Of a stretch of DNA of 64,000 nt, positions 14,266 to 16,159 are shown piece by piece. The notes under the pieces were generated by a model. The model saw only the letters and a list, made by a program, of their open reading frames with translations, made no database searches and was not told where the DNA came from. The position numbers and the translations under genes are program-made. The number at the start of each line of letters is the position of its first letter. Position 1 is the first letter of the stretch. This stretch comes from an uncultured Alphaproteobacteria bacterium (lineage in GTDB: Bacteria; Pseudomonadota; Alphaproteobacteria; MPNO01; UBA830): contig CAJWSW010000006.1 of assembly GCA_913046035.1 (NCBI GenBank), positions 6,493 through 70,492 on the forward strand, read 5' to 3'.

Positions 14266-14382
14266 GTCTGAACTCCTGGACTGGTAAGTATATGGAAGGA
14301 ATGGATAGTCATTTAAGATAATTTCTTTACGATCGTTGCAAAGGATCGGATTTACGGTCGATATAGCAGGCATAAAGTCAAA

Positions 14383-14463
14383 AAATCAATAAATGATAAT
14401 AAAACTGGGGAGCTGGATAGCGCGCCGCTGAATGAGAGATAAATCATCTTTAATCGTTTTCAT
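14383..14463 (-). pseudogene. remnant of NPr/HPr-like phosphocarrier gene
   Basis: Minus-strand mini-ORF MKTIKDDLSLIQRRAIQLPSFIIIY* just upstream of ahcY. It resembles an HPr N-terminus (MKT..I.N..GLHARPAA.L) but the phospho-His region reads LIQRRA, and the gene is truncated to about 26 codons. It sits where ptsH/npr lies in related loci. Confidence 0.25.
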
Positions 14464-14639
14464 TCCTCGGCTTAGATAGGCCATTGATAAATATAAGTCC
14501 GCCGAGACACTTGCAAAGAACAACACCTGTGAGCTTTAAACAAGTTATAGAGGCTGGGCGGAATCGGCCAAGTGTCCGGGGCAGTTTTAAACAAAAATTC
14601 GAGCTTTCCGCTGATCTTGTGCGACCCTGACCCCGTTGG

Positions 14640-14759
14640 AAAGTAAAAATCGTACAGGGCGATGCTTTTCCTAGACCATAAAACTTGTCGGGACTTTCTC
14701 CGAAGCCGCGTTTAGCCGGCGCCGGTCAGGGATAAAATAACCAAGCCAATTGCAGACAT
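14640..14759 (-). pseudogene. remnant of EIIA-Man (PtsM/ManX-like) gene
   Basis: Minus-strand ATG 14759 gives MSAIGLVILSLTGAG*. The EIIA-Man N-terminus is MIGLVLVTHGRLAE, so the active His is replaced and a premature stop follows. A further fragment (RRLNAASEKVPTSFMV) continues in another frame. No ORF of at least 60 aa exists in 14374..14794. Confidence 0.3.
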
Positions 14760-14794
14760 GTCAGCCGTTTTGTCGACATTAGTGGATGGCCTAT

Positions 14795-15703
14795 TTACTC
14801 ACCGCCATTCAAATCTCGGTGGCTAATGCTTACCCGTTCATTAATTCCCATCAACCAGTCTTTCAGTCGCTCGGCGACATAAACGGACCGGTGCTTACCA
14901 CCGGTGCAACCAACCGCAATAGTCAGGTAGCTTTTACCTTCCGCGCCATAGCGCGGTAGTAAAGGTTCGAGCAAATTGGTCAAGTTGCTTAGAAAAGATT
15001 TAAATCCAGCGTCGCGCTTTATAAATTCGCCAATCAGTGCGTCCCTCCCGGTAAGTCCGCGGAGGTTTTCCTCGTAGTGCGGGTTTTTTAGAAAACGAAC
15101 ATCGAATACCAAATCAGCTTCGCGTGGAACACCATGGCGGTAGGCAAATGAAGTAACGAAAATCGCAAGCCCAGGGGCATTATCCAATCCATAATTTGAC
15201 TCCAAAAGACCTCGCAGGTGGCTTATGGCCATATCAGTGGTGTCAATGACTTCGTCGGCGCGGTCACGAAGTGGCGCCAGCAGACGGCGTTCACCTTGTA
15301 TTCCATCGATAACACGGCGATCGGGCGCGACTGGGTGTCGACGTCGGGTCTCTGAAAATCGACGACGCAGCACCTCAGAATCGCAATCGAGAAATAGCAA
15401 ACGCAGTTTCAGGTCTTCTCTTCCGATCAATACGTCAATTTCCTCTAGGAATGGCTCAGCGCCAAAATCGCGCGTGCGCGCATCAACACCAATCGCAAGC
15501 GGGCGGTCACTTCCATTTCCAGGCGAGGGCAGGCTGGACAGCAACGACAAGGGAAGATTGTCCACTGCTTCATAACCAAGGTCCTCTAGTGCCTTAAGCG
15601 CTGTAGATCTGCCGGCACCTGACATGCCGGTAACAATGACAATCAACGAGGTTTTTTCGGACTGCATCGCGCCATATTCAGGGCCCCCGGTCCTTTTACT
15701 CAT
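14795..15703 (-). CDS. rapZ: RNase adapter / nucleotide-binding protein RapZ (YhbJ family)
   Basis: P-loop TGMSGAGRS followed by ALEDLGYEAVDNLP, diagnostic of RapZ. Track ORF is over-extended. The likely start is ATG 15703, which overlaps the stop of the upstream hprK-remnant frame (ATGA). ATG 15667 is an alternative. Confidence 0.85.
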   Translation of the reverse strand: MSKRTGGPEYGAMQSEKTSLIVIVTGMSGAGRSTALKALEDLGYEAVDNLPLSLLSSLPSPGNGSDRPLAIGVDARTRDFGAEPFLEEIDVLIGREDLKLRLLFLDCDSEVLRRRFSETRRRHPVAPDRRVIDGIQGERRLLAPLRDRADEVIDTTDMAISHLRGLLESNYGLDNAPGLAIFVTSFAYRHGVPREADLVFDVRFLKNPHYEENLRGLTGRDALIGEFIKRDAGFKSFLSNLTNLLEPLLPRYGAEGKSYLTIAVGCTGGKHRSVYVAERLKDWLMGINERVSISHRDLNGGE

Positions 15704-16140
15704 TGTTTTAGTAAATCCTTTTTCTCGGTTTTGGTCGCGGCAATGACCCAAACTGCTGTCCAAGCCCAAAGACACAACTTTATCGGCCTGAACACCTCAA
15801 ACGGGTCGATTAATATCCCGCGGATTTGCACCCCCAGATGCTCATATCGATCAGCGTCTTGCAACCGTTGAATGACAGCACAGTCTTCGAGATCACAAAT
15901 TAAGCCTAGTACCAGATCACTAACGTAGGGAATTTAATGCACTCCATCGCCTCGGACCTCAATACGACCCGTCAAAACTAAAATTAATGATGCGATAGCC
16001 TCGCCATCACGCTCCTTGACTAAAACCTGGTCATCTGAAATCAGAAAACCACTTGCATCGATCGAACGAAACGCAAGACGTTAATTGTCGGCCTCAAACG
16101 GACCGTGCAGGAGAACAACAAACCCACCTAATAAAAAATT
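15699..16140 (-). pseudogene. hprK: HPr kinase/phosphorylase gene, inactivated (short alphaproteobacterial form)
   Basis: A single minus-strand frame of about 147 codons reads ...NPNFLLGGFVVLLHGPFEADN*RLAFRSIDASGFLISDDQVLVKERDGEAIASLILVLTGRIEVRGDGVH*IPY...DRYEHLGVQIRGILIDPFEVFRPIKL...*. This is homologous to HprK (GVLI.GPSGSGKSDLALRLIDRGA.LV.DD..., LEVRGVGII). It has in-frame TAA stops at 16081..16083 and 15934..15936, the Walker A GxSGxGKS shortened to GPFEAD, and no start codon after the chvG stop. Confidence 0.6.
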
Positions 16141-16159
16141 TGGATTAATGTCTTGGCAA

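Follow-up and report, generated by a model that had tools for sequence, protein, structure and literature searches.

We analyzed a 64-kb stretch of DNA from an uncultured alphaproteobacterium (contig CAJWSW010000006.1; hereafter the window), centering on the minus-strand locus that extends from the two-component genes chvI and chvG to ahcY. In the direction of transcription, this locus comprises intact chvI and chvG, a damaged frame related to the HPr kinase gene hprK, an intact rapZ and, within a gap devoid of open reading frames (ORFs), a short vestige of ptsM, the gene for EIIA-Man, followed by a conserved noncoding segment and intact ahcY. The NPr gene ptsO, which together with hprK and ptsM contributes to the nitrogen-related phosphotransferase system (PTS-Ntr) module of related loci, was not recovered. 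Coordinates are collected in Table 1.

For comparison, we scanned for RapZ using one genome per species, which yielded 21 loci. Two of these (L019 and L021) belonged to unrelated bacteria and were excluded; the remaining 19 (L001-L018 and L020) came from marine or freshwater metagenome-assembled genomes (MAGs) assigned to ‘Rhodospirillaceae’ or ‘Alphaproteobacteria’, with RapZ identities of 48-78%. In L020 and L001, the gene order is chvI, chvG, hprK (160 and 165 aa, respectively, with a start overlapping the chvG stop), rapZ, an EIIA-Man gene (137 aa), an NPr gene and ahcY, and the L020 proteins scored above the Pfam cutoffs for EIIA-man (98.5 bits) and PTS-HPr (95.2 bits). By tblastn, chvG, hprK, rapZ and the EIIA-Man and NPr genes were intact in the comparison loci, except for a chvG match with an in-frame stop in L018. 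Scored wherever the fetched stretch reached the genes, all 40 related loci outside the lineage of the window (18 from reference genomes and 22 from metagenomes) carried intact hprK, rapZ, EIIA-Man and NPr genes, and a stop-containing hprK match unaccompanied by EIIA-Man or NPr matches occurred only in the window and its near-identical relatives. The ancestor of this lineage carried chvI-chvG-hprK-rapZ-ptsM-ptsO-ahcY, as every sampled relative still does.

Table 1. Features of the chvI-ahcY locus in the direction of transcription (positions in the window)
Feature	Position	Strand	Basis
chvI	18550..17804	-	ORF list
chvG (sensor histidine kinase), intact, 535 aa	17767..16160	-	ORF list and 76% identity to L020 ChvG
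hprK, pseudogene	16163..15700	-	Mutated start ATA (16163-16161) to terminal TGA (15702-15700)
Stretch without usable ORF between chvG and rapZ, 456 bp	16159..15704	-	
rapZ, intact, 302 aa	15703..14795	-	NF003828, two Pfam RapZ domains
ORF-free gap between rapZ and ahcY, 529 bp	14794..14266	-	
ptsM (EIIA-Man) N-terminal remnant	14759..14712	-	Syntenic position, 7/10 residue match
Deletion scar or spacer, homology undetected	14711..14393	-	blastn, tblastn and hidden Markov model searches all negative
Conserved segment, probably the ahcY promoter	14392..14341	-	Conservation with relatives
ahcY, intact, 431 aa	14265..12970	-	Homologue starts, conserved GGAG

Between chvG and rapZ, the minus-strand frame from 16158 reads, in conceptual translation, CQDINPNFLLGGFVVLLHGPFEADN-stop-RLAFRSIDASGFLISDDQ...IEVRGDGVH-stop-IPYV...KKDLLKQ-stop, with in-frame TAA codons at 16083-16081 and 15936-15934. 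Residues 13-139 of intact HprK from L020 and L001 aligned to 16131..15751, covering ~125 residues in one frame without gaps at 40-42% identity (tblastn, E 1e-22 to 1e-24 in a small search space; 1.5e-20 against the whole window). The conceptual product scored below the cutoff of the Hpr_kinase_C model (PF07475; 12.5 bits, cutoff 33.3, compared to 66.4 bits for intact L020 HprK) and reached 11.5 bits with TIGR00679. The Walker A motif (16104..16081), GPPGAGKS or GPSGAGKS in relatives, has become GPFEADN followed by the first TAA, which occupies the former Ser codon, and no longer conforms to GxxGxGKS. The HprK signature is likewise degenerate, with IEVRGDGVH (15963..15934 including the second TAA) deviating at positions 6 and 9 from the consensus (I,L,M)E(I,V)RG(I,L,M,V)G(I,V)(I,L,M) (PMC2937029).

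Further damage affects the ends of the frame. Where the chvG stop and the hprK start overlap (16163-16160), the window has ATAA, compared to ATGA in L001, L006 and L002 and GTGA in L020, and chvG ends with TAA rather than the TGA of relatives. Assuming an ancestral ATGA, a single G>A change would have preserved the chvG stop (TGA to TAA) while abolishing the hprK start (ATG to ATA). Nor does an ATG, GTG or TTG occur from the chvG stop up to the first TAA. In a DNA alignment with six relatives, 59 nt separate the start from the P-loop sequence GGTCCG, versus 63 nt in L020 and L001; this net loss of 4 nt (1 + 3) within the first ~20 codons shifts the hprK body by -1. A further 3-nt deletion and a divergent tail were seen near the 3' end, and an indel-free alignment with intact hprK extends over ~375 bp of the body. 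With an ATA start, two TAA codons and a net -1 frameshift, no uninterrupted ORF with a start codon remains. On the basis of tblastn homology and of a position between chvG and rapZ matching that in the 40 related loci, the remnant descends from hprK and is a pseudogene of the HprK/P family rather than a member. An earlier note, made from the sequence alone, had recognized the HprK-like frame with both TAA codons, the collapsed Walker A motif and the lack of a start codon after the chvG stop. Its description of the frame as carrying only point nonsense mutations has to be revised, since the damage also includes the start loss, the frameshift, the indels at both ends and the decay of the Walker A and signature motifs.

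A second vestige lies in the gap downstream of rapZ. At the position where ptsM starts in relatives, the peptide MSAIGLVILSLTGAG, ended by a stop, matches MSMIGLVIVT in seven of ten residues; from 14759 onward, the codons ATG TCT GCA ATT GGC TTG GTT ATT specify MSAIGLVI, compared to MSMIGLVI in relatives. The alignment collapses after these first codons, leaving ~10 homologous codons and a TAA at codon 16; the phospho-His of VTHG is lost, and the peptide does not qualify as a member of the EIIA-Man family (PF03610). The match is too short for BLAST significance, and seven identities among the first eight residues at the syntenic site within a 529-bp space are very unlikely to have arisen by chance (~1e-6, our estimate). 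The remnant was found in both subclades of the lineage introduced below. No EIIA-Man or NPr homology was detected elsewhere in the gap with profile hidden Markov models (HMMs) from the 19 relatives, which scored negative in six of six frames. An NPr remnant was also not found in the gap by tblastn or by blastn at word size 7, and the HMM of the 19 relatives for the NPr/HPr family (PF00381) gave no hit anywhere in the window. The ~26-codon NPr-like remnant that the earlier note had placed here consequently falls away. Its EIIA-Man remnant with a lost phospho-His holds, as does its gap of ~530 bp. The left boundary that it gave for the region, 14374, goes back to an ahcY ORF of artificial length.

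The starts of ptsM and ahcY lie 494 bp apart in the window, versus 1228-1594 bp in L001, L007, L009 and L020. At least 730 bp, including the whole of ptsO and the part of ptsM beyond the remnant, have therefore been removed by one or more deletions. We also considered a single deletion that joined ptsM codon ~15 to the NPr C-terminus. Only four residues, GFGE (14707-14696), would mark such a junction, a match at chance level (E>4), and we rejected this model for want of support.

The same lesions recur in independent assemblies. A Tara Oceans contig (L022, from ERR599075) encodes the exact ChvG protein and matches the window at 99.3% identity across 12.8 kb, including the TAA pair and the gap. 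A scaffold from Global Ocean Sampling (GOS; L023) shares 98.4% identity over 15851..14429 and contains the ptsM remnant. Clusters at 90% identity comprised 40 ChvG and 46 RapZ members from NCBI MAGs, ENA, JGI and Logan. ChvG and RapZ bear consecutive accessions in three MAGs, and therefore no protein is annotated between them. Nine further contigs (L047-L054 from ENA and Logan and L055 from GCA_002692905.1) have the same architecture. In those that cover chvG (L047-L052), the chvG-rapZ spacer is 457 bp; the spacer between rapZ and ahcY measures ~528 bp. L047-L054 constitute a second subclade with 93-96% nucleotide identity to the window, which shares ATAA, both TAA codons, the broken Walker A motif and the same deletion. 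Thus, wherever covered, the lesions are common to all 11 independent assemblies (L022, L023 and L047-L055) in two subclades.

Because these 11 assemblies, including a second subclade at ~5% divergence, share the lesions, the loss is real and fixed in the lineage and not an artefact. The notion that the stops and absent genes stem from faulty assembly or sequencing of a single genome retains practically no probability, as both the lesions and the deletion recur across varied projects and technologies (Tara Oceans, GOS Sanger, NCBI MAG, ENA long-read and short-read, and Logan). Together with the 40 intact loci outside the lineage, the shared lesions sustain the central proposal of the earlier note, a lineage-specific decay of the hprK, EIIA-Man and NPr module with rapZ kept. 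That note had named assembly error and natural absence of the genes from relatives as grounds for abandoning the proposal; both were checked and neither was found. Decay is still proceeding in sublineages. The former Walker A Lys codon is AAG, the ancestral form, in L047 and L051, AAT in the window and TAG among L048-L054; L047 carries an extra TAA at 15987-15985; and a 1-nt deletion near 16143 is present in the window and L022 and missing from the second subclade. Recovery of the lineage from Tara Oceans, GOS and other seawater assemblies identifies the organism as a marine planktonic bacterium, for which the earlier framing of the locus as a virulence node is inappropriate.

To place the inactivation in time, we compared codon positions. 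At position 2, identity to L020 was 0.64 for the remnant versus 0.77 for the intact HprK of lineages at equal ChvG distance (ChvG identities 0.89 and 0.88), and at position 1 it was 0.60 versus 0.72. After Jukes-Cantor correction, the remnant shows an excess of ~0.2 substitutions per site over positions 1 and 2, and its GC content at position 2 has dropped from ~0.52 to 0.35. Since the local neutral distance between the subclades is 0.06, an excess of ~0.2 suggests that hprK was inactivated several-fold earlier than the subclade split, and far earlier than the separation of the window from L022 (0.7% divergence). The earlier note had instead proposed a recent loss, with hprK functional until shortly before the present and disabled only by point nonsense mutations. 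Such a history would agree with the ~375 bp of indel-free hprK body and with the ptsM N-terminal remnant, in which the pattern of differences from relatives resembles synonymous change. It is very improbable given the at least five disabling lesions common to subclades that are ~5% diverged, the excess substitutions and the fall in GC at position 2, and the net 4-nt loss at the 5' end. The indel-free body itself is to be expected, as the neutral gap between rapZ and ahcY accumulated one indel per ~80 substitutions between the subclades. With this low ratio, the unbroken hprK body is unremarkable, and we rejected the idea that a lack of frameshifts reveals selection on the frame, which is also at odds with the even codon-position spread, the private stops and the 5' indels. 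An unbroken frame is no proof of a young pseudogene where the indel rate of a lineage is low.

Polymorphism within the lineage speaks to present constraint. The 36 polymorphic sites in the collinear hprK body are distributed 13:10:13 over the codon positions, and about three-quarters change the amino acid; on these grounds, the remnant is under no protein-level selection. Between subclades, the remnant diverged by 0.059-0.066 per site versus 0.167 for the rapZ-ahcY gap, which as a whole evolves at about the neutral rate. Four-fold sites at the adjacent 3' end of chvG (0.047-0.062) and the 5' end of rapZ (0.052) match the rate of the remnant, so the difference from the gap is regional variation, with no sign of RNA-level constraint. 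A slower-than-neutral remnant (0.06 versus 0.167), initially considered, was dropped in view of these flanking four-fold sites at 0.05-0.06. The region accordingly has the properties of a fixed unitary pseudogene with a deletion scar, namely shared lesions, a 13:10:13 distribution and a rate equal to the local four-fold rate. The ratios of nonsynonymous to synonymous divergence (dN/dS) between subclades were 0.012 for ahcY and 0.19 for chvG; chvG, rapZ and ahcY are under purifying selection and the remnants are neutral.

These data also bear on a possible residual function of the hprK remnant as a read-through or split protein, as a small ORF (a 54-aa TTG-initiated ORF at 15864..15700) or as an RNA leader of rapZ. 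Its full length has been kept, and its subclade divergence of 0.06 is below the 0.167 of the gap, as would be expected under constraint. The evenly spread and mostly amino-acid-changing polymorphisms, the new stops in sublineages and the loss of the catalytic Walker A Lys in the window nevertheless make any such function highly improbable. The remnant moreover evolves at the local four-fold rate, with constraint only in the last ~30 nt that carry the putative ribosome-binding site of rapZ, and no Rfam family matched it.

The rapZ gene itself has been maintained. RapZ passed the full-length family model NF003828 (324 bits, cutoff 244), contains both the RapZ-like_N domain (PF03668, 132 bits) and the C-terminal domain (PF22740, 150 bits) and is 78% identical to L020 RapZ, and an identical sequence is present in the protein collection. 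In line with the earlier note, the gene is intact, and its ATG overlaps the terminal TGA of the disrupted hprK frame. Between subclades, dS was 0.13 and dN 0.006; with a dN/dS of 0.045, rapZ is under strong purifying selection and has been functional since the loss of the module. An AAGGA at 15720..15716 (minus strand), 12 nt 5' of the rapZ ATG and thus still within the 3'-terminal part of the disrupted hprK frame, is probably its ribosome-binding site, because a purine-rich AGGGA- or AAGGA-like motif occupies a similar position in six of six aligned relatives irrespective of frame; within the lineage, AAGGA is invariant. The RapZ Walker A motif (15625-15602 in the window) reads GMSGAGRS in the window as in L020 and L001. 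P-loop nucleoside triphosphatases normally have Lys where RapZ of this clade has Arg. An Rfam search detected no GlmZ or GlmY match within the window.

We consider it very probable that the locus records a fixed, fairly old and lineage-specific loss of hprK, ptsM and ptsO with rapZ kept. hprK accumulated the ATG-to-ATA start change, the two TAA codons, the wrecked Walker A motif and the small indels, and the deletion or deletions of at least 730 bp took ptsO and all but the first ~10 codons of ptsM. None of the three genes is expressible from this locus. For rapZ, no terminator-like site was found between chvG and rapZ, and a promoter and terminator scan from chvG to ahcY gave counts not above those of shuffled sequence. 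With G at 0.27 and C at 0.18, the remnant is rich in G and poor in C on its sense strand, which would make it a poor Rho-loading site. Combined with the Caulobacter and Brucella operons discussed below, these features suggest that transcripts from the chvI promoter cover chvI and chvG, run on through the hprK remnant, which is not translated, and reach rapZ. Translation of rapZ would rely on its conserved AAGGA, and ahcY would use its own conserved promoter. HprK, EIIA-Man and locus-encoded NPr would no longer be made, Ser-phosphorylation of NPr would be gone, and RapZ and ChvG/ChvI would operate without all three proteins. Deletion of ptsO would, in addition, break the relay from EI-Ntr to EIIA-Ntr unless another HPr-type carrier exists.

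How far the consequences reach depends on the rest of the genome. On the 64 kb examined, a complete loss of HPr-kinase control is plausible. Alternatively, intact hprK, ptsM and ptsO paralogues or another HPr-type carrier elsewhere might have rendered this copy redundant. Such a relocation seems unlikely, as tblastn and profile HMM searches found no second hprK, ptsM or ptsO copy in the window, none of the ~38 window ORFs scanned contained a PTS domain and the module occupies one conserved position in 40 of 40 related loci. A further-reaching scenario, in which the whole PTS-Ntr relay has been dismantled in an abundant free-living marine lineage that keeps ChvG/ChvI and a constrained RapZ, is offered tentatively, with somewhat more standing against it than for it. 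If true, it would constitute a natural experiment in which alphaproteobacterial RapZ and ChvGI signaling need no HprK, NPr or EIIA input.

Several points weigh against a fixed and old loss with a functional rapZ left behind. In the GOS scaffold L023 (AACY023409134), positions 892-894, equivalent to window 14962-14960, carry a TTA>TGA change at rapZ codon 248, and of 13 other differences from the window rapZ, six alter an amino acid. The nonsense codon, if real, hints that rapZ is dispensable or decaying in some strains; it may also be a Sanger read error and is unconfirmed, coming from a single short scaffold (1423 bp). The age estimate is rough because third positions are saturated relative to the outgroups and the GC content of the lineage has shifted. 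Co-transcription of rapZ with chvG is deduced from sequence features and operons in other bacteria. Finally, the scope examined is 64 kb, and paralogues elsewhere may replace the lost function.

The only part of the rapZ-ahcY gap conserved with relatives is 14392..14341 (79% identity to L001, E 2e-7, and 75% to L020 by blastn), which differs by one substitution in the second subclade. An alignment of ten loci delimited the elements TTGATT (14389-14384) and CTATAT (14366-14361) separated by 17 nt. This arrangement matches the alphaproteobacterial sigma-70 consensus, CTTGAC-N17-CTATAT, and the segment therefore probably serves as the promoter of ahcY. A 467-aa ahcY ORF opens at an ATG (14373) that sits in the spacer of this promoter. 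Homologues instead start at the position of the ATG at 14265, which follows a conserved GGAG, and AhcY is 94% identical to L020 AhcY over residues 1-431. The true ahcY start is therefore 14265, yielding 431 rather than 467 aa. For annotation, the chvG-rapZ region would best be recorded as a pseudogene and the ahcY start placed at the second ATG.

Between promoter and GGAG, the ahcY leader of relatives contains conserved, repeated motifs, CCCAAC or CCTAC ... GTGGGAC-GAATG-GTGGGAC (window 14266-14355; L001 8085-8172; L020 8423-8516; motifs also in L009, L008 and L007), and in the lineage of the window the leader is shortened and altered. RNAalifold yielded no convincing structure for the ahcY leader of 13 relatives, and the motifs could be an undescribed cis-regulatory element. 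Rfam searches of the gap and the whole window gave no match in the region and only a signal recognition particle (SRP) RNA elsewhere, and five relatives searched were also negative. The ptsO-ahcY interval of L020 contains a glyoxalase/VOC-family gene (PF00903) on the opposite strand (7650-8306, minus), absent from the window, and in L001 (7642-8004, minus) this gene is internally deleted to a 120-aa fusion of its two ends; the ptsO-ahcY neighborhood is a gene-loss hotspot in the wider clade. Directly 3' of ahcY, the L001 reference MAG UBA7314 has a masked run of N at ~9470-9840.

The broader window is gene dense, with ~88% in long ORFs, and encodes housekeeping and transport functions (pheS, rplT, addA/addB, polA, acnA, ccm genes, recR, several ABC systems and SRP RNA). 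Its gene content is ordinary and not that of a decaying symbiont. GC content ranges from 0.46 to 0.57 across the window and is 0.50 here versus 0.54-0.69 in relatives, and GC at third codon positions is ~0.49 versus 0.54-0.79, consistent with a shift of the lineage toward lower GC. For a product on record identical to ChvG, Pfam lists Sensor_TM1, Stimulus_sens_1, HAMP, HisKA and HATPase_c domains. Single-nucleotide differences from L022 fall in clusters along the window, 11 of them within 133 bp at 18011-18143 (chvI) and nine within 145 bp at 19005-19149 (a CREG/DUF2470-like gene), which suggests short recombination tracts within the population. A 557-aa ORF at 27191-28864 (plus strand), which lies 3' of the gene for a solute-binding protein, had no Pfam match at E<=1e-3, and neither did a 213-aa ORF at 21509-22150 (minus strand) beside pckA. 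The SRP RNA, of the bacterial small type (RF00169, 65.8 bits), lies at 43680-43776 (minus strand) and adjoins an apparent dnaX-ybaB-recR cluster (putative dnaX).

The locus thus provides a clean natural knockout of hprK, ptsM and ptsO beside intact chvIG and rapZ, in a lineage widely sampled across oceans. It suggests that the link from PTS-Ntr to ChvGI/BvrRS is dispensable in at least one free-living lineage and that something other than its PTS neighbors accounts for the retention of rapZ. In Escherichia coli, rapZ (yhbJ) belongs to the operon rpoN-hpf-ptsN-rapZ-npr, and one study reportedly links RapZ and EIIA-Ntr to GlmS. The E. coli locus resembles the present one in associating rapZ with PTS-Ntr genes and in the two-domain architecture of RapZ; it differs in its rpoN context, as opposed to chvGI, and in that the window rapZ survives without PTS neighbors. 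To our knowledge, the small RNA targets of E. coli RapZ, GlmY and GlmZ, are not known in alphaproteobacteria.

The closest arrangement is the Brucella operon bvrR-bvrS-hprK-(BAB1_2095)-ptsM-ptsO-...-ahcY (Dozot et al. 2010, PMC2937029; a 2022 study of the BvrR/BvrS regulon, PMC9491525). Around the two-component system the gene order agrees, namely a divergent pckA upstream, a response regulator, a kinase, hprK, EIIA-Man, NPr and ahcY, with tsaE and addB/addA beyond, and HprK of Brucella has the same truncated alphaproteobacterial form of ~150 aa. All three PTS genes are intact in Brucella, in contrast to the hprK pseudogene and the deleted ptsM and ptsO of the window, and the place of rapZ after hprK is taken there by an unrelated gene of unknown function. 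Brucella HprK was shown biochemically to phosphorylate NPr on Ser61 (PMC2937029), and the phospho-His of EIIA-Man is His9 in Brucella and that of VTHG in the relatives of the window. A PTS input into ChvGI has some basis in the reported interaction of Rhizobium PtsN1 with ChvI, cited in PMC9491525, and its consequence in the present organism is conjectural. In Caulobacter crescentus, hprK is functional, unlike here, and is co-transcribed with chvI and chvG under induction by envelope or osmotic stress (PMC9731502), which supports transcription of the gene after chvG from the chvI promoter. More generally, the distribution of ptsP, ptsI and related genes in Proteobacteria reflects vertical inheritance combined with lineage-specific loss (PMC2405797). 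That survey includes neither this lineage nor the pattern of lost hprK, ptsM and ptsO with rapZ kept. The window locus is one more such loss, with remnants still visible: a documented case of a known kind, the lineage-specific loss of regulatory PTS genes, and otherwise ordinary reductive evolution.

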